Under the pieces are notes generated by a model that worked only from the letters and a program-made list of their open reading frames with translations, made no database searches and was not told the DNA's origin. This document shows positions 7,319 to 21,953 of a stretch of 21,953 bases of DNA, piece by piece (position 1 is the first letter of the stretch; each line of letters starts with the position of its first letter). Origin of the DNA: Promethearchaeota archaeon (GTDB lineage: Archaea > Asgardarchaeota > Lokiarchaeia > Sigyniarchaeales > SOKP01); contig JAFGGO010000012.1 in the NCBI GenBank assembly GCA_016930515.1, positions 1 to 21,953 of the forward strand, in the 5' to 3' direction. The translations under genes were made by a program, and so were the position numbers.

Positions 7319-7963
7319 TTATTTTCCTTCTTGTAATTTTTGTTTTGCTTCCTTGATCCAAGTCTCGATTCTCGTTTCGGTCGCTCCTTTTATTTTAATA
7401 GCCAACTCTCCTGGGTTTTGTTTGCATAAATCCTCGACGCAACTAACACCCACGCTTTCGAACTTTTTGGCAGTTGTTGCTCCTAAACCAGTTAAGGCCG
7501 TTAGAGGAGTGACCTTATCTTTTGGAATGGGTTCTTCTTTTATTGGGGTTTTTGTTTCGATTGTTGGCGTTTTCACTAGTATTTCATTTTGTTTTAACGC
7601 TGGTGTTTTTTGCGTGATGGTTGATTTGGGTTTTACCTTCGTTTTCGGTTTTGTGTTAGGTTTAGTGGCTTTGTTCTTTTTTTCCGTTTTAGGTTTGAAA
7701 GGGGTGCGCTTTTTTTCTTTTTTAACAAAAGCTTCCCGTTTCTTGATTTTCCTTTCGGGAAGTTTAAGTTTCTTTAATTGGTCTACATTAGAATCATGAG
7801 ATGATTTTCTGAAGTAATCAATATGTATTCCCAAATTTTTAAGGTCATTCAATGTTTTTCCCGATTTCTTTATCTCAGCCAACGAAAATCCTTTTGCATT
7901 TTTCAAGTGGTAATGCTTCTTTCTCGAAGGCGATTTTACCAGAGCTGTTGGTTTGCTTTCCAT
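7319..7963 (-). CDS. rpl13e: Ribosomal protein L13e-like domain fused via a Lys/Pro/Thr-rich linker to a C-terminal helix-hairpin-helix domain
   Basis: aa 1-66: P.ALVKSP...KGFSLAEIKKSG.....KNLGIHIDYFRKSSH..NVDQLKK matches the archaeal L13e pattern. aa ~152-212: LTALTGLGATTAKKFESVGV..VEDL....PGELA.KIKG......TWIKEA is HhH (RadA-N/DUF4332-like). GGTG SD upstream. Confidence 0.8.
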   Translation of the reverse strand: MESKPTALVKSPSRKKHYHLKNAKGFSLAEIKKSGKTLNDLKNLGIHIDYFRKSSHDSNVDQLKKLKLPERKIKKREAFVKKEKKRTPFKPKTEKKNKATKPNTKPKTKVKPKSTITQKTPALKQNEILVKTPTIETKTPIKEEPIPKDKVTPLTALTGLGATTAKKFESVGVSCVEDLCKQNPGELAIKIKGATETRIETWIKEAKQKLQEGK

Positions 7964-8129: not shown

Positions 8130-8771
8130 TTAAAACGATATAATATCTAAATTCTTGAGTTTAACGATCGATTCGCGAATTTTGAGGCGATCTTCGTACA
8201 ATTCTTTCGCTATCTTCAAGGGGGAATTCATACCATCGCATTTAGAGGCTATTCTATAATCAATTTCGTCAATTAAACCCATCGATAGTATTTTGTCTAA
8301 AACTCCCTTGACCACTAACAGTTTCGGAAAAAATTCCGCAATTTTCCCTCCCATCGTGAGGTTTTCTATATCGACTATTAACGATTGGAATTTACTTTTA
8401 TCGGTAGTGGATCGGAAGATTTTCAAGTCTGCTTTATGTCTTTTCCAAAAACGGGTGGCTATCTTACGCATTATATCTTTCAAGCAAGAAATATCGTCGT
8501 CAGCGTCTGATATAGAACAAAATAATATTGCAGATTCTGGATGAAAAAAAATTACGATAATTGAATCTTCTGCCTCAACGATTCTCAATATTTCGTCGAT
8601 CTTCCTTCCCGTAGACATGGCCGCTTGAACGGAATCTATCGTTCTATTGATGGCGTTGAAGAATCCCGGAAATAAGCCTTCCTCGGCTTTATTATCCTTG
8701 AATTCCTTGAAGGAAGACTCAAGTAATGAGATACCGCTGTTACTATCGATCAAGTAAATCTTGTATATCAC
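8130..8771 (-). CDS. Longin-like domain + C-terminal winged-helix protein
   Basis: N-terminus IYKIYLIDSNSGISLL...LFPGFFNAIN...ILFCSISDADD....KDIMRKIATRFWKRH has the longin beta-beta-alpha-beta-beta-beta-alpha-alpha pattern. C-terminus CDGMNSPLKIAKEL......IRESIVKLKNLDII is wHTH-like. GTG start. Confidence 0.72.
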   Translation of the reverse strand: MIYKIYLIDSNSGISLLESSFKEFKDNKAEEGLFPGFFNAINRTIDSVQAAMSTGRKIDEILRIVEAEDSIIVIFFHPESAILFCSISDADDDISCLKDIMRKIATRFWKRHKADLKIFRSTTDKSKFQSLIVDIENLTMGGKIAEFFPKLLVVKGVLDKILSMGLIDEIDYRIASKCDGMNSPLKIAKELYEDRLKIRESIVKLKNLDIISF

Positions 8772-8901
8772 TGTTCTATAATTAATTTTTTAATTTGTTA
8801 CTAAACACATGGAATTACCCCCTTAAGAATGATAATGATTAATGTTATAAGGAAAAATAATTATCTATTTTACAAATTAAAACAATTTAGCTTGTCTTAA
8901 C

Positions 8902-10179
8902 ATGAAGAAAATAAAACTGAAACACAGTGGAGCTTCGTTATTATTATCCTTGGTCGTAATTTCTGCGTTCTTAATTCCTTCAATACAAGTAAATAAGATT
9001 AATATAGTAAACAAGCACTATCTCGTAAAAAATTCTGACTTAGGCGTTTCTAATTACACAATAACACAGAGTGTTATATATCGCGTTGAAGTCAATTTCT
9101 CCATAACTCAAACTGGAGTTGGAACTGGGCAATATTACATGAAACATCCTAGATTCGACGATTTAGAACCGACTTCACCTACCTCACCGTATTCTGGACC
9201 ATTTCAAGAAAGCGAGCTTATATATTCCAAAATTACTGGAAGCGAATTTCCCTCCTATACTTTTCGAGATGAATATAACAACACTTTTGATGTATTCAAT
9301 CATTCTGCATTAGCCCGTCATGATACAATACAATTCACCCAAATATATAATATTACGTTAAATGAAGTATCGTATGGAGATCTTTCGAACTTACCAATAA
9401 CAATGAGTGATTACGATCAATCAGATCCAATATTCAAATATTTTTGTAATGAATCTGATCCAATTTATCCAAGAGATAATCCAACCTTAATCGCAAGATC
9501 TAACGCCGTAGCGGGATCGTTTACAAATCCTTACGATAAAGCGAAAGCAATTATTGAATATGTTAGTTCGCATATCACTTACAACGACGAATTAGGTACA
9601 GAAGAAAAAGGGGCACTTTGGGCGGAAGTTCAAGGTACTGGCGATTGTTCTGAATATTCTACATTGATGATAACACTTTTAAGAATACAAGGAATCCCTG
9701 CTCGAAAGGCTGGTGGGTTCATGATCGTTCCGAACATGCAATATATTCCAAATATAGGGCAATCTTGGACATATAATTTTGGTAATCTTTTAGGACACGC
9801 CTGGGTGGAATATTATATTCCTTCGATTGGTTGGATTCAATGTGAACCTCAAAATCCGAGTTATATCAAAAAAAGCAGTTATCTTAGACTTACACAAACA
9901 TTAGGAGCTTGGTTTTCTTTTCCTTATTACAATTATTCTTTAGGATCTGTTCAAGAATATAATATTAGCGAGTATAATATGCTTTTTACAGCTTATACTA
10001 ATGATTTATCTTACGACTATGAGATAAAAATTACCGTTATTGATACAAACTTTATTTTAGGTCCCGACTGGATTTCTATTATCATATGGGTGAGTATTAT
10101 TGGTACAGTAGTCGTTGTTTCAATAACAATCATTCGGGCAATCGTTGTTAAAAAACGAAGGAATAAAAATGCTTGGTAA
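8902..10179 (+). CDS. Secreted, membrane-anchored transglutaminase-like (cysteine protease fold) protein
   Basis: Signal peptide MKKIKLKH + hydrophobic stretch; YDKAKAIIEYV..HITY; GDCSEYSTLMITLLRIQGIPAR (Cys); GHAWVEYYIP..GWIQCEP (His; Glu at the usual Asp); C-terminal TM helix followed by KKRR. Confidence 0.88.
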   Translation: MKKIKLKHSGASLLLSLVVISAFLIPSIQVNKINIVNKHYLVKNSDLGVSNYTITQSVIYRVEVNFSITQTGVGTGQYYMKHPRFDDLEPTSPTSPYSGPFQESELIYSKITGSEFPSYTFRDEYNNTFDVFNHSALARHDTIQFTQIYNITLNEVSYGDLSNLPITMSDYDQSDPIFKYFCNESDPIYPRDNPTLIARSNAVAGSFTNPYDKAKAIIEYVSSHITYNDELGTEEKGALWAEVQGTGDCSEYSTLMITLLRIQGIPARKAGGFMIVPNMQYIPNIGQSWTYNFGNLLGHAWVEYYIPSIGWIQCEPQNPSYIKKSSYLRLTQTLGAWFSFPYYNYSLGSVQEYNISEYNMLFTAYTNDLSYDYEIKITVIDTNFILGPDWISIIIWVSIIGTVVVVSITIIRAIVVKKRRNKNAW

Positions 10180-10209
10180 ACTCTTTTTAAAAAACATCTT
10201 TTTTTTCTT

Positions 10210-11628
10210 TTATATATAGGTTTTCATCAAATCTCCCAAATTAAGGGTAAATTCTGGGACGCTAGTTTCAATTTTATCGATTCCAAATTGCTCTTCGATG
10301 AAAAATAGCAGGTATAAGTTGTATTTTTCGACTTTAATTTTTTTAAATACGATTTTTTTTGATTCGTCCGTAATTCCTGAAGAAACCAAGAAGTCTTTTT
10401 TCAGCATTTTAAATTCCTTGAATGTTTTATAAAGCGTTTGAAAATGAGGTGCGGAGATTTCAAAGCACTTGTTTGACAATTCATCGTTCGTAGAATAATT
10501 TGAAAGGATTATGCCTTTCTCGTTAAGAAGGAGCAATGCACTTGAATTCGTCTTATTTGCGAGAATTCTTAGTTGATTTTCAAATAACTCGCGATTCGGG
10601 CTTAATTGCGACAAACCGAAAGAGTATGCTGAAATCAAGGAATAATGGTCGAAAATCGATGTTTTAAAGACTTTGATGAAAAAGTTCTGAGTGCAGTTCT
10701 GAATTTCTTCGGTAATATCGTCGCTAAGTTCGTCAAGCTCGAGCATGCCTTTCAGATCGGGGTCGTATTTATTAAAACATACTACAATGGGTGGATATTC
10801 CTCCAATTGTCTGAGTGTTTCAACGATATTTTTGAAAAGCTCAAGAGCTATTTCGATTCTTCTCTCATCCTGGATGTCAATCAAATAATAAATTAAATCG
10901 GCGTTGTATAAGTAGATCTTACTTTGTTCTAAGTATTTTTCACGATATTTCTTTTGACCTCCTAAGTCCCAAATGGAAATCTGAGATTCTTGTTCTTCAA
11001 AAAGACGCTCCTCTGAGCGTTCAATCCCCTTTGTTGGTAATACTTTTATTATTTCAGAATATTTCTTATTAACACCTAGTAAAAAGCTTGATTTTCCCGC
11101 TTTATCTAATCCTGCAAACAGAATTTTTAAATTTCTTTTTGTCGAAAAAGGATCCTTCAATTCTTTTGTAAATTCTATCAAATCTTCTTTCAAACTAAAA
11201 ATGGTTTTTGAATGCTCCTCGTAATTACTAGATCCTTGGATCGTGCCCGCTGCCTTATCGAGAAGGATTCTGAGGTATTTCATGTTCGTGTAAAAAAAAC
11301 TGCTATTTTTTTCGTCAATGAGAAGCGTAATCGTTGCTGCTTTTGCTTGACCACGCGCTTGATCGTCGGCGATCAAGAAGAAATAAGTTAATCCGTTGTA
11401 TTGAAGGTCAGGAAAAGGCAATATTCCAAAATAATTAATGCCGTCGATTTGATCTCCGTTTTGATATATGGAATCCCCCATTAATAAGCTAATCGTTTTC
11501 ATGGCAATGACCGAGCGAGCAAGTTCATCCATGTCTTCGGGAAGATAGAATACTGGTGTTGGTCCGTCCTCGTCAAAGATAGAAAGGACAATTCCCCTGA
11601 TTATCTCTTGCTTATTCTCTGATGTCAT
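10210..11628 (-). CDS. Three-domain protein: uDENN/longin-like domain + Rag/Arf-like small GTPase + C-terminal roadblock/longin-like domain
   Basis: G1 GLDKAGKS (aa173-180), switch I PT (T199), G3 WDLGGQ (220-225), G4 NKYD (286-289), Rag-type G5 TSIFD (323-327). C-terminal ~125 aa contain ALLLLNEKGIILSNY. N-terminal ~160 aa begin IRGIVLSIFDEDGP...PED and contain FFLIADDQARG. Confidence 0.88.
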   Translation of the reverse strand: MTSENKQEIIRGIVLSIFDEDGPTPVFYLPEDMDELARSVIAMKTISLLMGDSIYQNGDQIDGINYFGILPFPDLQYNGLTYFFLIADDQARGQAKAATITLLIDEKNSSFFYTNMKYLRILLDKAAGTIQGSSNYEEHSKTIFSLKEDLIEFTKELKDPFSTKRNLKILFAGLDKAGKSSFLLGVNKKYSEIIKVLPTKGIERSEERLFEEQESQISIWDLGGQKKYREKYLEQSKIYLYNADLIYYLIDIQDERRIEIALELFKNIVETLRQLEEYPPIVVCFNKYDPDLKGMLELDELSDDITEEIQNCTQNFFIKVFKTSIFDHYSLISAYSFGLSQLSPNRELFENQLRILANKTNSSALLLLNEKGIILSNYSTNDELSNKCFEISAPHFQTLYKTFKEFKMLKKDFLVSSGITDESKKIVFKKIKVEKYNLYLLFFIEEQFGIDKIETSVPEFTLNLGDLMKTYI

Positions 11629-11795
11629 TGTTCCTGAGACGATATCCCGATCTATTTTTTTCTGAATAACAAATAATGTAAATTATTGCAATAATAATAA
11701 TTTGATTATTAAAGATCTTTGATTTAACTTCGATTAAATTATAAATTTTAGAGTCTCTCGATAGATAAAAAAAATATTTAATTTCTATAAATAAA

Positions 11796-12590
11796 ATGCT
11801 TCTTGGTAATGCTGCAATAGATATTAAATCCTTTTTTTTCGAAATATTCCAAATTCTTAGCAGACAAGATCGAAGCATTACCGAAGTTTGGATTGAAGTC
11901 TCAAACCTCGAATTTCTTAAAGAATTTAAAAAGTTTTCTCAAGTACGCGATTTCCTTTACGATTTTAATTTTATAAAGATTAAGGACGGAAATTATGTTA
12001 AAAATGCTTACATCGTAATCGATAAAATCCAATTTATTTGCGAATCAATGATGTTTCTCGATCTTGATCTGAGGAACTTGGCAATTCTATTGGATTTCAG
12101 CGGATTTGAATCGTTGGTGAAAGAAATTCTTTTTCGACATGGTTATCGCGCTTTAAAAAATTTTAGGTTCTCTAATAAAACCTCTGAAAGGCAAAAACGA
12201 TTTGAGATCGATGTGATAGGCATAAAAAGAAATTTAATTTTGATTATAGACGCAAAACAATGGATGAAAAAAGATTCACCTGCGGCAATGAGCAAGGCTG
12301 CAAACATGCAATTTCAAAGGGTCGTGGCTCTGAAAAACAATTCTGTGGTTTTTTCAGACATGATTCAAGAATTATTAGGAAAAAAAGCAAAAATAAGAAA
12401 AAATTTACCTTTTGTGTTGATCCCTTTAATGATCTCCTTGGAAGACAATTACTTACCATTGAATGAGAATAATATCCCTTTAGTGTCAATTTATCGATTT
12501 AATTCTTTTTTAAATGAGCTTAACTTGAACCTGCAAACATATAAACATGTAATGGTCAATAAAATAAGCCTGCAAAAACAATTAATTTAA
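11796..12590 (+). CDS. PD-(D/E)xK restriction-endonuclease-like protein (Mrr_cat/NERD-like)
   Basis: LDFSGFESLVKEILFRHGY (helix with Glu), then FEIDVIGIKRNLILIIDAKQW (D...D-x-K catalytic motif). Start codon uncertain. Confidence 0.78.
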   Translation: MLLGNAAIDIKSFFFEIFQILSRQDRSITEVWIEVSNLEFLKEFKKFSQVRDFLYDFNFIKIKDGNYVKNAYIVIDKIQFICESMMFLDLDLRNLAILLDFSGFESLVKEILFRHGYRALKNFRFSNKTSERQKRFEIDVIGIKRNLILIIDAKQWMKKDSPAAMSKAANMQFQRVVALKNNSVVFSDMIQELLGKKAKIRKNLPFVLIPLMISLEDNYLPLNENNIPLVSIYRFNSFLNELNLNLQTYKHVMVNKISLQKQLI

Positions 12591-12610
12591 AATTATTTCT
12601 AATATATAAC

Positions 12611-12651
12611 ACTATATATATCAAGCGGATCGAAATATTTATATATATAGT
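12611..12651. promoter_or_regulatory. 11-bp inverted repeat overlapping a TATA-like element upstream of the small ORF at 12712
   Basis: ACTATATATAT (12611-12621) / ATATATATAGT (12641-12651) with a 19-bp spacer; TTTATATA at 12638-12645. The arms are low complexity. Confidence 0.35.
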
Positions 12652-12711
12652 ATGATATAGATCGTTAAGGAATCAAAAATTATTAAACTAAATAGAGGCA
12701 AACAACCAAAC

Positions 12712-12819
12712 ATGTCATTAAAAGGTTTTGTTGAAATAGTTATGGGAATTATTGGAATGACGGGTTTAATAACCTTAGCTAGTCTTTTGTTGATCCTCTC
12801 CAACTATATTTTTGTTTAA
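12712..12819 (+). CDS. Small single-pass membrane protein (35 aa), not in the ORF track
   Basis: MSLKGFVEIVMGIIGMTGLITLASLLLILSNYIFV*. Uniformly hydrophobic, and more G-rich than the flanking intergenic DNA. Upstream TATA-like box and GAGG at 12695-12698. Confidence 0.55.
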   Translation: MSLKGFVEIVMGIIGMTGLITLASLLLILSNYIFV

Positions 12820-12945
12820 TGCAATAATTAGAATTAATTTCTTGAATCATTCTAAAAATATTCAAATCGTATTTAATTATTTAAATTCTAAATATATAAT
12901 ATCTGATTTGTTTTAAGGGAATTAAAAAAAGTATAGAACCAACTT

Positions 12946-14136
12946 TTAAGGTTGGGAGCTTAAATATTCGATAATATCGTTCGTAATACTAGCTACTGCC
13001 ATGTTAATAATTCCTCTCCTTACTTTTGGGTGAGAAAATATCATTAATACGATTCCCTTGACGATGGGTGATTTCTTATCGCTGAGTGGTGCCAAATCCA
13101 GAATACCTTCTGATCCGCGTATCGATATAGACTCAAGATCGCCTGCACTTAATCCGTGTATGATGTCCGCTCCAATCATTGATAAATTCTGTCCAATCGT
13201 CGCAAACAAGGAATCTGAGAATCTCCCAGAAATTGCTGCTGCTAAAATGGTACCATCGTTTTTAATCAAGGCACCTGCTTCAATATGATTGTCAATGGTA
13301 AGTAAACGCTTTAAAATGTCGTTCATGTTATCTAGTTTGATCTTTTCCACTAAAGACTTCTCTTTTAGTTCAGGGGTTTTATCTGAACTTCGTTCCTTGT
13401 TAACTTTTAATTTGCTAGAAAGAAATTTAAGTACATTTGTCATGTCTTCTTCTAATTCTAGAAGTTTATGTTTTTCGGAAACGCTCGATTCCTGAATCAT
13501 ATTTTCCAAAACTGGTGATTCGTTTATATGATTAACTTTAGAAGCATTTTCAATAGTGCCATCCGAATCTTGAATTTTATGATCTTTAGATTCTTCTAAA
13601 GGTTTAGTTTTAGGTAACGATTTAGTAGTAGGTAAGGACTTGGTTGTTGGTTTTATGGGTGTATTCTTTTGAGCAATAATGGATCCACTGAACGGTTGAG
13701 GCGTTATTTCCTGTAATATTTGAGATTTATTATCAAAATCCCTTGGATCATCAGATTTTCCTGCCTGCTGTTGATCATTTAAATGCAATTTCGGTTCTTG
13801 AGGTCCAATAGGCTTTTCTAGTTTTTCTTCTTCTTTTTCATCTTCATCCTCATTAGCTTTGGGAATTTCCTGTAAATCCATAGTTGTCGCTACGGAGTGG
13901 AAGGGTGTTGATATCGCATCGCTATCGTCTTCTATTGAAATATTAATTTCTTGATCATTTGTTTGAGAAATAATTTCCTCTCCAATTATCTTTATATCGT
14001 CTTCATCGTTTTCAATCGGCTTAGGTAAAGTAATACGGCGACGTCTTGATTGTACGGGTAATAAAGCCCCACATTTATTACACGCAAGAGCCTCATCATC
14101 ACTATTCGTTGCTCCACAATTGCTACATATTCTCAT
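12946..14136 (-). CDS. Zinc-ribbon + long disordered linker + C-terminal Roadblock/LC7 (MglB-like) domain protein
   Basis: N-terminal CSNCG...CNKCG followed by RRRR; ~230 aa acidic/Pro/Ser/Thr/Lys-rich region; last ~125 aa (DILKRLL....IEAGALIKNDGTILAA...GDLESISIRGSEG...VLMIFS....RGIINM) are a typical roadblock. Confidence 0.82.
   Translation of the reverse strand: MRICSNCGATNSDDEALACNKCGALLPVQSRRRRITLPKPIENDEDDIKIIGEEIISQTNDQEINISIEDDSDAISTPFHSVATTMDLQEIPKANEDEDEKEEEKLEKPIGPQEPKLHLNDQQQAGKSDDPRDFDNKSQILQEITPQPFSGSIIAQKNTPIKPTTKSLPTTKSLPKTKPLEESKDHKIQDSDGTIENASKVNHINESPVLENMIQESSVSEKHKLLELEEDMTNVLKFLSSKLKVNKERSSDKTPELKEKSLVEKIKLDNMNDILKRLLTIDNHIEAGALIKNDGTILAAAISGRFSDSLFATIGQNLSMIGADIIHGLSAGDLESISIRGSEGILDLAPLSDKKSPIVKGIVLMIFSHPKVRRGIINMAVASITNDIIEYLSSQP
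13597..13650 (-). repeat. Three degenerate 18-bp coding repeats (PTTKSL PTTKSL PKTKPL)
   Basis: Visible in the translation; codons are synonymously diverged (CCAACAACCAAGTCCTTA / CCTACTACTAAATCGTTA / CCTAAAACTAAACCTTTA). Confidence 0.75.
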
Positions 14137-14268
14137 AATTCGATAGGTTAAATGAAACCCAATTAATTTATTTTTTGTCTAGTAAAAATAATGCTTAAAA
14201 ATAATTAAATTTAGCGAATATTGATACCAAATTGAAAATTCTCCTAACAGGCAAACCGTACGATTTTC

Positions 14269-15219
14269 CTACTTTTTCAATACTTCTTGAATGAGACTAC
14301 CAAATGTATCGAAGTATGAATTGTTAAATTCGCTTGTTTGTTTGTGAAGAATGATGTAATACTCGTGGGAATTGTCTTTAATCAAGATTTCCTTAAATAT
14401 AAAATAATCGCCAAATCGCTGTATGAGCATATGGCTATTGGCGAGCTCTTCTGGACTTTTATTAGAAAATTTATGAAAGCTATCGTTTAATGCAAGGAAA
14501 TATGGCATTGTTGACATTAAAATGTTTTCAGATTCCTTGTTTTTAAAGTATGTGCTTACGATGAGAGAATTGTGGTCAATAATAACCGCTCCTTTTGCTT
14601 CTAATTTACGGGCGAATTCTTCGATGGTTTTTTGCAGGAGTTCAGCTTTCGTATATAAACTCAGAAGAATTTCCGACATTGCTTGTATTATAGTAGGAGG
14701 GTCGTATATTGATGTTTTATAGAAATGGATTTTCTTGTATTTTATATCTTTTGATATTACTTTTTGGATGGAATCAATAGAATTATCTAATTCGTTTTTT
14801 GATGTCTTTATTAGCGCTGGATCGTATTTGTGAAAAAATACAAAAATAGGGGGTTCGATTTCGAGCTTTTCAAATTGTTCTATCACATCTTTCAAATAAC
14901 TTAGAGCTTCTTCGTGGCGATCCTTGTTTAAAATATCAATAACATAAATGGTAATTTCCGTCCCTTCAAAATATTTATTCGGATTTTTCAAATATGCGAT
15001 TCGATAGTTCTCTTGTCCTCCGAGATCCCATTCCGCTATACTTTTTCCCAAAAAGCTAAATATTCTTCTTTGAGCTCCCCGAGTTGGGGAGAGTAATGCG
15101 AATTTGGATAATTCTCTCTGTATCATTAAAATAGTGGATGTCTTCCCCGCCGCATCTAATCCTGTAAATAAAATCTTATGAGCCTCGCTGTCTTCTTTAA
15201 GATATTCCAATAATTTCAC
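14269..15219 (-). CDS. Rag-like small GTPase with C-terminal roadblock-like domain
   Basis: G1 GLDAAGKT, switch I SPTRG, G3 WDLGGQ, Rag-type G4 HKYD and G5 TSIYD; C-terminal domain begins LLQKTIEEFARKLEAKGAVIIDHNSLIVSTY. GTG at 15219; in-frame ATA at 15228 may be the true start. Confidence 0.88.
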   Translation of the reverse strand: MKLLEYLKEDSEAHKILFTGLDAAGKTSTILMIQRELSKFALLSPTRGAQRRIFSFLGKSIAEWDLGGQENYRIAYLKNPNKYFEGTEITIYVIDILNKDRHEEALSYLKDVIEQFEKLEIEPPIFVFFHKYDPALIKTSKNELDNSIDSIQKVISKDIKYKKIHFYKTSIYDPPTIIQAMSEILLSLYTKAELLQKTIEEFARKLEAKGAVIIDHNSLIVSTYFKNKESENILMSTMPYFLALNDSFHKFSNKSPEELANSHMLIQRFGDYFIFKEILIKDNSHEYYIILHKQTSEFNNSYFDTFGSLIQEVLKK

Positions 15220-15302: not shown

Positions 15303-16655
15303 TTAGAATTTTTTACTTAAAAATCGTCGAAAATCGCTGTAATTATCGATCTCGGCCTCGTTAGAAAATTCTTTTTTACTTTGTATTTTTAGTAAGGAAT
15401 CTGGAATTTTTGGAGTAACACCAACTAGAGATACGATTTCTTCAGGAAATTTCGCGGGATCTGCAGTCTCCAAGGAAATACCCTTAAATTTAGCGTGTTT
15501 AGGATACTGGTTTCGATATATCTTTAAAGCCGCCCATCCAACTGCTCCATGGGGTTCTACAATTCCTCCGTGTTTTTGGTGAAATTGTCCAATGGTCTTT
15601 TTCGTGAGTTCGTCCGTAATAGAAAAAGATGCGATATCTCGTCTCATCTCGTCTAAATTTGGTTCTTGGTGAATGATTCCCTTTTCATCGATTTGCCCCC
15701 CGTATAAGTCAATCACTCTTGCTAAATTCGAAGGATGTCCAACATTCATGGCGTTGCTAATGCATTTTCTCGAAGGTTCGACTTTTTGATACCTTCCCGT
15801 TTTTAAGAAATTTGGAAACTCGTCGTTCTCATTAACCGCTGAGATGAACTTTTTTACGGGAAGCCCCATTTTCTTTGCTATGAGCCCTCCCATTAGGTTT
15901 CCAAAATTTCCCGAAGGAACTGAAAAAATGACTTTTTCTCCTACTTTATCGGCCACACGCGAATAACTCCAAAAATAATAGATGCTTTGAGGTAAAAGCC
16001 TACCTATGTTTATTGAATTCGCGGAAGACAAGTTTATATGCTTTAACTCTTCATCAGCAAAGGCAGTTTTTACCAAATGTTGGCAATCATCAAATTTTCC
16101 ATCAATACCGATTGCTGTAACATTTTTTCCCAGCGTAGTCATTTGCTTGCGTTGTAAATCGCTAATTTCTTTTTTCGGGTAAAGAACAACAATATTAATA
16201 TTTTCCATTTCATAAAAGGCTTGGGCCACGGCACCTCCAGTGTCTCCAGATGTTGCGGTGAGAATAATGATCTTCTTGTCTTCCTCTTTTAGATAATATT
16301 CCACGATTCTTGCGAGAGATCTAGCGCCAAAATCTTTAAAACTGCATGTGGGGCCCTTATCTAAATAACATATATAATCCTTTTGATCTATTTTTTGAAT
16401 GGGGACAGGAAAATTTAGGGCTCTTTTTAATAGAAGCTTTAAATTTTTCTCGGGAATGGAGTCTCCCAAAAGCTTAGAAATAATCGTTGAAGCTATATCG
16501 CTTAACTTTAATTCTCTAAAGGAGAAAATTTCATCTATTGACAGGGAAGGAATTTGATTTAACATGTATAAACCCTTGTCCAAAGCTTGTCCTGTCAATA
16601 TTGCGGTTTTAAAATCAACATCAAGCGTATTTCGGTTCGTGGAGTGCAACAACAT
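15303..16655 (-). CDS. thrC: Threonine synthase (long, E. coli/fungal-type)
   Basis: GPTCSFKDFGAR (PLP Lys), ATSGDTGGAVA, LYPK..ISDLQRKQMTT, FDDCQ.LVK, SANSINIGRLLPQ, VPSGNFGN, ISNAMNVGHPSN, EPHGAVG, LETADPAKF. Confidence 0.95.
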   Translation of the reverse strand: MLLHSTNRNTLDVDFKTAILTGQALDKGLYMLNQIPSLSIDEIFSFRELKLSDIASTIISKLLGDSIPEKNLKLLLKRALNFPVPIQKIDQKDYICYLDKGPTCSFKDFGARSLARIVEYYLKEEDKKIIILTATSGDTGGAVAQAFYEMENINIVVLYPKKEISDLQRKQMTTLGKNVTAIGIDGKFDDCQHLVKTAFADEELKHINLSSANSINIGRLLPQSIYYFWSYSRVADKVGEKVIFSVPSGNFGNLMGGLIAKKMGLPVKKFISAVNENDEFPNFLKTGRYQKVEPSRKCISNAMNVGHPSNLARVIDLYGGQIDEKGIIHQEPNLDEMRRDIASFSITDELTKKTIGQFHQKHGGIVEPHGAVGWAALKIYRNQYPKHAKFKGISLETADPAKFPEEIVSLVGVTPKIPDSLLKIQSKKEFSNEAEIDNYSDFRRFLSKKF

Positions 16656-20806: not shown

Positions 20807-21808
20807 TCAATAATTTAGGGATATATTTATCATATCGTTCAACACAGCTGAAGCCGCCTCAAATCCCCCAGCACCGCGTCCCATAAGAATGATGGGTCCT
20901 GCGTGTTTTGTCTGAAGTTCAATTACATTGAGTGTGCCCGAAATATTAAGCGGGTTATTGATCTCGACTAATCTTGGTTCGACAACGAGCTTATCGTTCT
21001 CTGTAATTGCCAGATGTTTTATGACATAACCTTCCGTCTTGGCAAGATCGATGGAATGAGCCGTGATGTTTGTTATTCCCTTAATTTGCACATCCTTTAT
21101 CGTTTTGGACCATCCGAGGAGTTCATTCGCCAAGATGACGAGCTTTCCTGCAGCGTCGTATCCTTCGATATCCAAGGTAGGATCTGCCTCTGCATATCCC
21201 AATTCTTGGGCTTCTTTTAAAGCAACATCGAATTGAACTCCTTCGGCAGACATTCGACTAAGAATATAGTTGCATGTGCCATTTAGAATGGCTCTTATAC
21301 CCGTTATGGTATTGCCAACTAAAGCTTCTCTCATAGATAAAATGGGAACGCAACTTGCAACTGTACCCTCATATCTGACTTGACATCCGTTTTCTTGGGC
21401 CAAGTCTTTTATTTTTTGGTATTGCAAGTAAAAGGGTCCCTTGTTTGAGGCAACCACATTGATGTTATTGCTTAAAGCTCCCACTATGGTGCTAAGAGCA
21501 GGTTCTCCCGTCTCCGGGTTGGTGGGCGTCGTTTCAACGATGATATCAAGATCCAATTGGGTGATATGGTCTAAGATTTTTATTCCCAACTTCCACGATT
21601 TGGAGTTCCTAAAATTTACTCCCATTTGATCAATCTGTTCGATATCCAATCCTTCTTCGTCTATCAAGGCCCCATCGAATTCAAAAATCGCAACGAATTT
21701 GTATGCAATCCCGAACTTGTCTTTTATTTCTTTTCTCTTTTCAATTAACAATTTTAACAACGATGAGCCGACAGTTCCCTTTCCTATCAGGCATACTTTT
21801 TGTTCCAT
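20807..21808 (-). CDS. hom: Homoserine dehydrogenase (short form, no ACT domain)
   Basis: CLIGKGTVG Rossmann motif, VVASNKGP, YEGTVASCVP, ILNGTCNYILSRM, AQELGYAEADPTLDIEGYDAAGKLVILAN, GRGAGGFEAASAVLND. ATG at 21808 preferred over TTG at 21817. Confidence 0.95.
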   Translation of the reverse strand: MEQKVCLIGKGTVGSSLLKLLIEKRKEIKDKFGIAYKFVAIFEFDGALIDEEGLDIEQIDQMGVNFRNSKSWKLGIKILDHITQLDLDIIVETTPTNPETGEPALSTIVGALSNNINVVASNKGPFYLQYQKIKDLAQENGCQVRYEGTVASCVPILSMREALVGNTITGIRAILNGTCNYILSRMSAEGVQFDVALKEAQELGYAEADPTLDIEGYDAAGKLVILANELLGWSKTIKDVQIKGITNITAHSIDLAKTEGYVIKHLAITENDKLVVEPRLVEINNPLNISGTLNVIELQTKHAGPIILMGRGAGGFEAASAVLNDMINISLNY

Positions 21809-21953
21809 GATGTTCAACGAAATTCTAATTATCTAGATTAATAAAAGTAATTATTGCAGTATATAAAGTACTAAACCATAAAAAGATTAGATACTATTAA
21901 CGGATTTAGCATTGGTTCAAAATTCAATTATTGTTTTATTATTATTCCCTTAT

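Follow-up and report, generated by a model that had tools for sequence, protein, structure and literature searches.

Small GTPases, longins and roadblock proteins are encoded by the dozen in Asgard archaea, and it is unknown which regulator is paired with which GTPase. Genome layout rarely helps in this pairing (Tran et al. 2024, PMC10933270), and most genes of these kinds lie outside conserved neighbourhoods, a point stressed in both studies that surveyed them (Liu et al., bioRxiv 10.1101/2020.10.19.343400; Tran et al.). In MK-D1, one Rag-like operon pair was predicted to heterodimerise via the roadblock domains (Tran et al. 2024, PMC10933270). The GTPase clients of those Asgard longins that carry a Gly-Pro motif have been posed as an open question (PMC12290439). 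Here we analyse the contig JAFGGO010000012.1 of a Promethearchaeota archaeon (assembly GCA_016930515.1), the whole of which, 21,953 nucleotides, is called the window. Four of its genes encode a longin protein with a winged-helix-like C-terminus (A), a longin-GTPase-roadblock protein (B), a roadblock protein with a zinc ribbon (C) and a RagA-like GTPase with a roadblock domain (D), and they form a neighbourhood that recurs in related genomes.

Several described systems share parts of this domain layout. B and D have, like the eukaryotic Rag and Gtr proteins, a Gtr1/RagA-type G domain followed by a roadblock domain, and C is a free roadblock protein, as found in Ragulator and EGO. The longin of B has Gly-Pro and Arg motifs, as in the longin GAPs FLCN-FNIP and GATOR1 (NPRL2-NPRL3-DEPDC5). 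A is a second longin, without Gly-Pro, and its layout of a longin plus a small C-terminal domain may be similar to that of NPRL2 and NPRL3. The differences are also clear. The longin of B, which is of the GTPase-activating protein (GAP) type, is fused to the GTPase itself, whereas in FLCN it is followed by a DENN domain. Unlike Ragulator, the locus has no LAMTOR1-like lipidated wrap, in place of which C has a zinc ribbon and a disordered tether. There is no DEPDC5, TOR kinase or lysosome, and a relative of D is a homotetramer according to its PDB title.

Among archaeal proteins, the same two GTPase architectures are found in the Asgard Rag-like GTPases of Tran et al. (2024, PMC10933270) and in the PDB entries 8yl2 (LokiRagO) and 8zla/9m28 (LokiRagM). 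The GTPase genes of Tran et al. were generally unlinked to roadblock or longin genes, whereas here a linked set is kept across two families. The Asgard “NPRL2-like proteins”, reported from the majority of Thor genomes and from a few of Loki, consist, like A, of a longin and a small C-terminal domain, and the family of A, which may be the same orthologous group, is likewise widespread. No genomic link between the NPRL2-like proteins and Rag-like GTPases was reported (Liu et al., bioRxiv 10.1101/2020.10.19.343400). In MglA-MglB, as in the D-C tandem (132 bp apart), the roadblock gene directly follows the GTPase gene on the same strand. Compared with MglA, D is Rag/Arf-like, with an intact DxxGQ and a roadblock domain of its own, and C has a zinc ribbon and a 230-aa linker, both of which MglB lacks.

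Proteins of the GTPase-roadblock and longin-GTPase-roadblock types, NPRL2-like proteins and GAP-type Asgard longins are already published, and D-like structures are in the PDB. In the literature we found no description of a conserved neighbourhood joining these genes, and the neighbourhood itself appears to be previously undescribed. It provides a short list of candidate partners, namely B with its fused GAP-type longin, D, the tethered C and A without Gly-Pro, and thereby candidate partners for the ancestors of the eukaryotic nutrient-sensing switch.

Layout and conservation of the neighbourhood

The window is a complete contig (C180) of a 4.0-Mb assembly with a completeness of 94%. All four genes are on the minus strand. 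D (14269–15219, 316 aa) has a RagA-like GTPase domain at aa 15–190 and a roadblock-type domain at aa ~195–316. C (12946–14136, 396 aa) has a zinc ribbon at aa 1–26, followed by RRRR, a linker of ~230 aa and a roadblock domain at aa ~268–390. B (10210–11628, 472 aa) consists of a longin, a Rag-like G domain and a roadblock domain, and A (8130–8771, 213 aa) of a longin at aa 1–144 and a winged-helix-like domain at aa ~155–213. Two plus-strand genes stand between them, one for a NERD/Mrr-like protein of the PD-(D/E)xK fold (hereafter NERD; 11796–12590; Pfam NERD 8e-5, Mrr_cat 0.008) and one for a transglutaminase-core protein (TGase; 8902–10179; PF01841, 2.6e-21). An earlier note on this DNA had reported the four open reading frames with these domains, and both their positions and the four domain calls were borne out.

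The same note had argued that the interspersed transglutaminase and nuclease genes speak against a single operon. The layout agrees with this. D and C follow each other on one strand, B and NERD diverge with 167 bp between their starts, B and TGase converge at a distance of 30 bp, and TGase and A diverge at 130 bp. These spacings and strands suggest about five transcription units and not one operon. AT-rich, TATA-like stretches precede D and C, and such stretches occur everywhere in the window, which has a G + C content of 33%.

For the synteny comparison we sampled 40 relatives from four families (f1 to f4) of one order and retrieved 35 loci. The arrangement D-C-(NERD)-B-(TGase)-A was found, in the same orientations, in at least 19 of the 25 f1 genomes (13 genera), a count that allows for contig breaks, such as that of G020, whose contig ends inside B. 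The A orthologue shares contig and strand with D, C and B in most f1 genomes, in the order D-C-B-A. Reduced forms were found in f2: D-C-B-TGase-A in one genus (G030), whose B-type gene is 34% identical and perhaps a paralogue; D-NERD-B-TGase-A, without C, in one genus (G036 and G038); and B-TGase-A and TGase-B-NERD-C on short contigs of other genera. The other B genes of f2 to f4 are 41–45% identical to that of the window. The D-C tandem recurs in at least 12 related loci, with a gap of 92–251 bp. The synteny check proposed in the earlier note was thus positive, with order and orientation kept across f1 and a reduced form in f2, and across both families the block order is kept at ~40% protein identity. 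The conserved neighbourhood is confined to a single order of Lokiarchaeia-type Promethearchaeota.

In this genome, Gtr1_RagA-type matches number 39, of which about 12 are strong, and those to Robl_LC7 number 15; a Rag-Rag pair within 6 kb has a chance probability of P = 0.16. When about 12 Rag-like genes, 16 roadblock genes and one A gene were placed at random, the probability that two or more Rag-like genes and a roadblock gene lie within 7.1 kb of A was ~4e-5. Mirror-tree partial correlations over 12 genomes were 0.63 for B-C, 0.53 for A-C, 0.54 for A-NERD and −0.13 for D-NERD; because the taxa are few and non-independent and the controls weak, this comparison is uninformative.

Protein B, a longin fused to a Rag-like GTPase

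B matched Pfam Gtr1_RagA at 2.8e-25 (89.5 bits, cut-off 22), and so did all of its 24 orthologues. An AlphaFold2 model built from the 24 orthologues (predicted local distance difference test score, pLDDT, 73.6) contains, all on the minus strand, a longin at aa 10–155 (nt 11164–11601), a G domain at aa 169–340 (nt 10609–11127) and a roadblock domain at aa 346–471 (nt 10216–10593), the last with the topology alpha-beta-beta-alpha-beta-beta-beta-alpha. With Foldseek, ~310 columns covering the G and roadblock domains aligned with RagA, RagC and Gtr1, the E values for RagA and Gtr1 being 1e-14 to 1e-15.

The longin region has two features of its own. Pfam Folliculin matched 22 of the 24 orthologues, spanning aa 80–142 of B. 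In an alignment of the 24 orthologues, which come from four families and are 40–69% identical, Ser16, Phe18, Gly22-Pro23 and Ala91-Arg92-Gly93 are invariant. Gly22-Pro23 (11560–11565, minus strand) forms the “GP motif” before longin strand 2, and Arg92 (11353–11355, minus strand), within Ala-Arg-Gly, is the candidate arginine finger. The arginine finger of FLCN is Arg164, to which Arg92 of B may be spatially equivalent. A Gly-Pro motif that precedes strand 2 and adjoins the arginine finger is described as specific to longins of the GAP type: SMCR8, C9orf72, FLCN and NPRL2 have it, and FNIP2, NPRL3 and non-GAP longins do not; one class of Asgard longins, with no known client GTPases, has it too (PMC12290439). 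By these sequence criteria, the N-terminus of B is a folliculin/SMCR8-type longin with the GAP-longin signature of Gly-Pro and Arg. In B the longin is followed by the GTPase and roadblock domains and not by a DENN domain, so B is not an FLCN ortholog but only a carrier of the same longin type. That a GAP-type longin is naturally fused to a Rag-like G domain in B points to Rag-like GTPases as clients of this longin class.

HKxD is the Rag-type G4 motif, as in RagA and RagC. B carries NKYD as its G4 motif here and in most members of the window's family; one locus has TKYD, and the three other families have HKxD. The idea of an asymmetry between NKYD in B and HKYD in D was dropped, since B has HKxD in three of the four families and the asymmetry is not a conserved feature.

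A third Rag-like gene, here called B2, encodes a longin-GTPase-roadblock protein of ~500 aa that is 31–38% identical to B (L006:2383-3885, L013:341-1852, L017:12783-14318, L018:13922-15439 and L004:18900-20000). The order B2-SLOG-D occurs in several relatives, and the extended block there holds three Rag-like GTPases. In the window's own assembly B2 is on another contig (C187:12930-14399), possibly just past the window end.

Proteins D and C, a RagA-like GTPase and a tethered roadblock protein

D matched Pfam Gtr1_RagA at 9e-27 (94.4 bits, curated cut-off 22) and RagA at E 1e-12. It aligned end to end with PDB 8yl2 (E 5e-74, ~50% identity), and this full-length alignment to a RagA-like protein supports the C-terminal roadblock domain after the G domain. 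The G motifs are GLDAAGKT, WDLGGQ and HKYD, and the orthologues are 50–85% identical across the window's family. D is, by these matches, a RagA-like GTPase with a roadblock domain.

In C, the zinc ribbon was matched at E 1e-4, and its CxxC...CxxC is nearly invariant among the orthologues. A profile of the C-terminal 140 aa matched the Roadblock/LC7 structures 7f8m (E 7e-8) and 7yh1 (E 1e-5), and Pfam Robl_LC7 matched 12 of 15 orthologues. The linker of ~230 aa between them is disordered and poorly conserved, apart from short motifs and one helix. C is a roadblock protein with a long tether and a zinc-ribbon cap. It has no lipidated anchor of the LAMTOR1 type, its N-terminus consisting of the zinc ribbon and basic residues, and the block showed no further gene that resembles LAMTOR1. 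The D-C pair resembles a GTPase next to its roadblock regulator or scaffold, which by analogy would be an MglA-MglB arrangement with a Rag-type GTPase and a tethered roadblock protein.

The motifs of the C linker, at aa ~85–160 and ~225–245, are LQEIPK with an invariant Pro, L.EI.P.PF.GSII and the helix LE.DM..VL..LS.KL. They are likely candidate docking sites for partners.

Copies of D are found next to D in several genera, in tandem in G017 and G007 and inverted, with 43–45% identity, in G013 and G023 (L009:815-2812, L011:15514-17729, L002:3735-6082 and L007:2140-6718). Because of these duplications, D-type paralogues could pair together. The threonine synthase gene ThrC (15303–16655) lies 83 bp upstream of the D start, with a homoserine dehydrogenase gene (20807–21817) near it. 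ThrC and D are adjacent throughout f1 and not in f2. The position of a Rag-like GTPase beside an amino-acid pathway gene is suggestive, but perhaps a coincidence.

Protein A, a second longin

The AlphaFold2 model of A (pLDDT 88) has a clear longin domain at aa 1–144, which superposed on the Sec22b longin with a Z score of 15.3 (127 aa aligned, root-mean-square deviation 2.8); many other longins scored Z >10. In the model, the C-terminal tail consists of three helices and a terminal strand, which suggest a winged helix in truncated form. Foldseek ranked the NPRL2 and NPRL3 chains of GATOR1/SEA first among its local matches (247–287 columns, E 9e-5 to 8e-4), at a root-mean-square deviation of ~14, and these matches were no better than those to AP sigma subunits and other longins. 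In Pfam and NCBIfam no family matched A. Against PDB sequences, an A profile gave only the VAMP7 longin, at non-significant E values of 0.1–0.3, and no NPRL2 match. The Gly-Pro motif is not present in A, which has D9...G13 and no Pro at this place.

The A family is widespread, being found in 183 of 301 genomes of the phylum; in the sampled relatives, A is present in a single copy per genome. A paralogue of A fused to TPR repeats matched TrmB and HTH_47 in the region equivalent to the C-terminal tail, and HTH_47 or TrmB also occurs in the Atlas neighbours of A. No longer, fused forms of A turned up when they were searched for, which is itself weak evidence. A 540-aa frame containing A in G033 is an Arg/Gly/Pro-rich run-on without homologues and most likely an artefact. 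The A gene at G016:C86:11124-11614 looks split and has an internal TAA stop, and is either a pseudogene or the result of an assembly error.

A proposed switch in separate parts

We tentatively favour the reading that the neighbourhood holds separate, probably interacting parts of a Rag-family GTPase switch and that the neighbours are functionally linked, and give it a little less than an even chance. B would most plausibly be a self-contained switch, with its GAP-type longin acting in trans in a roadblock-mediated dimer. In this mechanism, the roadblock domains would let B and D each pair with itself, and possibly with one another, and the longin of B would supply the arginine finger to the partner G domain within the dimer, as a built-in GAP. 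The roadblock dimer of C could dock on the GTPase or the roadblock face, as MglB or the LAMTOR proteins do, with the zinc ribbon, the basic patch and the conserved motifs of its linker as a possible tether for the assembly. A is the best candidate for a non-catalytic longin partner of B, and the two longins may pair as in FNIP2-FLCN and NPRL3-NPRL2. Alternatively, A may act with the neighbouring membrane-anchored transglutaminase-like protein. If the parts do interact, the division of labour among Rag GTPase, longin GAP and roadblock protein would predate eukaryotes.

The earlier note went further and proposed that the four products could form one switch complex. The domain logic and the conserved neighbourhood are in favour of this idea, but the step from neighbours to a single four-part complex goes beyond the conserved neighbourhood and is not supported by the evidence here. 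A full prokaryotic counterpart of Rag, Ragulator and GAP, with a B-D heterodimer, joined through its roadblock domains, on a C dimer that is tethered by zinc ribbon and basic patch, and with the longins of A and B as the arginine-finger GAP, would possibly be tied to the threonine-pathway genes or to the membrane transglutaminase-like protein. We consider it improbable. If true, it would be a pre-eukaryotic version of the lysosomal nutrient-sensing switch.

Several observations weigh against a functional link among the four proteins. In most sequences the lone candidate finger of A is Arg, in some it is Lys or His, and in the window it is Ala. The context of Arg78 in NPRL2 may be like the “S-R-I-L-F” strand of A, and it is this position that holds Ala in the window. 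Having neither Gly-Pro nor an invariant Arg, A fits a non-catalytic partner of the NPRL3/FNIP2 kind or a generic longin. For D, the title of 8yl2 in the Foldseek listing, [quoted passage not shown], misfits an obligate B-D heterodimer, although this protein was presumably crystallised alone. A literature search for 8YL2, 8ZLA, 9M28, LokiRagO, LokiRagM and RagA-like tetramers found no paper, so the oligomeric state of this relative of D is known from PDB titles alone.

Other points concern the block itself. In f1 it runs from homoserine dehydrogenase through SLOG, CLC channel, ThrC, D, C, NERD, B, TGase and A to L13e-like, unk163, methyltransferase, unk625 and CxxCxxCC, and its part from D to CxxCxxCC persists in f2. 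ThrC belongs to this conserved f1 block, and the L13e-like, unk163, methyltransferase and CxxCxxCC flanks are kept no less well than the four genes. Between NERD and B, six genera have a 600-aa anaerobic ribonucleotide reductase gene (NrdD; PF13597, 9e-63). The genus g14 (three genomes, one closed) has NERD-B-TGase-methyltransferase-CxxCxxCC, with a B that is 43% identical and D 88 kb away; orthologues of A and C were not found in its three genomes, which keep B and D. Family f4, the most distant of the four, holds A, TGase and C near unk163 and the methyltransferase, with B and D each elsewhere. From these splits, A and C are not obligatory for B and D.

Possible inheritance of gene order alone

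The conserved flanks and the inserted NrdD gene mean that inherited gene order could explain the conservation. The four proteins would then serve independent GTPase circuits, in a block that was little rearranged since the ancestor of the two families. We regard this as a serious possibility, somewhat behind the interacting parts. It would account for the equal conservation of the flanking housekeeping genes and for the unrelated genes inserted in the block of relatives, which are, besides NrdD, an LRR protein and a beta-propeller protein. The breakup of the block in f4 and the missing A and C of g14 fit as well, and so does the cultured strain MK-D1, whose small GTPase genes as a rule share no operon with genes for roadblock or longin proteins (Tran et al. 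2024, PMC10933270). If the proteins do not interact, the locus is a caution against inferring function from a gene order conserved only among close relatives.

Inheritance alone fits less well with what happened in f2. This family lost the metabolic flanks (ThrC, CLC channel, homoserine dehydrogenase, pyrophosphatase and pirin), whereas the genes for D, NERD, B, TGase and A stand there in the same order and on the same strands, their proteins being ~40% identical. Spacing has stayed tight in the D-C tandem and in the divergent pairs B/NERD and A/TGase, and A entered the block from a different ancestral position.

A possible role of A outside the switch

This different position was found outside the order, where A homologues are adjacent to a membrane protein of about six helices, called M, in 17 of 19 loci from about ten families. 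The two genes are convergent (L021-L039, e.g., L021:8441-9061 on the plus and L021:9091-9948 on the minus strand), and A-M looks like an undescribed conserved gene pair, as judged from gene order. Within the window's order, A has given up the position known from elsewhere in the phylum. Within 8 kb of A, 17 of the 19 loci have no gene of the Rag-like, roadblock or transglutaminase type. In one genome that has an A homologue, Gtr1_RagA gave no match at E <= 1e-10, and in five large-contig genomes of other families the Rag-like genes are few and stand beside neither A nor a roadblock gene. These loci, too, count against A as a part of the switch.

A may accordingly be no Rag regulator, its partner being M in most Asgard lineages and TGase in this order, or A itself being a winged-helix transcription factor, with only B, C and D as GTPase modules. 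We think this unlikely, although the A-M pair, the genome without a strong Rag-like match and the TrmB/HTH_47 matches of the TPR-fused paralogue and the Atlas neighbours all point this way. So does the divergent A/TGase pair, which survives in f4 without B. The TGase gene is the most persistent neighbour in the block; it adjoins B in f3 and g14, A in f4, and both in f2 and part of f1. The older link of A to a membrane protein and its head-to-head pairing with TGase leave room for a membrane-linked or transcriptional role.

Against this stand the six f1 genera without TGase between B and A, in which A directly adjoins B. The bulk of TGase is predicted to be extracellular, with a cytoplasmic tail of ~9 residues, so that a longin protein in the cytosol would find little to bind. 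Typical platforms for GTPases are, moreover, what longin domains are (PMC3747258). Chance clustering, which the earlier note had held to be a real alternative in view of the abundance of these domains, can be set aside as next to impossible, since order and orientation recur in many genomes and the four-gene arrangement is so improbable under random placement, even if the Rag-Rag pair alone is not.

Neighbouring genes

The TGase gene is missing from six f1 loci and keeps its slot and opposite strand in about half the genera. Its protein has an N-terminal signal or transmembrane segment, a C-terminal transmembrane helix and a short basic tail, KKRRNKNAW; with such a start and C-terminal anchor it is probably displayed outside the cell. 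Such a location is odd, since no other gene accompanies the cytosolic GTPase regulators so persistently.

NERD orthologues are found in the same slot and on the same strand in L001-L017, L041, L045, L052, L053 and L055 (two families). A defence island, as the NERD nuclease could suggest, was rejected, since the two hits obtained with PADLOC were both sub-threshold. In loci without the complete NrdD gene, open reading frames of 145–162 aa are homologous to its N-terminal (ATP-cone) part (L004:7683-8171, L010:8076-8564 and L013:8277-8714). They are either deletion remnants or stand-alone ATP-cone proteins.

The M proteins are ~215–310 aa long, with about six membrane helices, and belong to no Pfam or NCBIfam family. 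In the window's genome, M (C76:29801-30676, minus strand) stands alone, with no A-like neighbour.

Directly downstream of A lies the L13e-like gene (7319–7963, minus strand). In its protein, the N-terminus resembles L13e (NCBIfam L13e 8e-14, which is below the curated cut-off; 27.8 bits with Pfam) and is followed by a linker rich in Lys and Pro and by a helix-hairpin-helix domain, and the gene keeps its position across f1 and f2.

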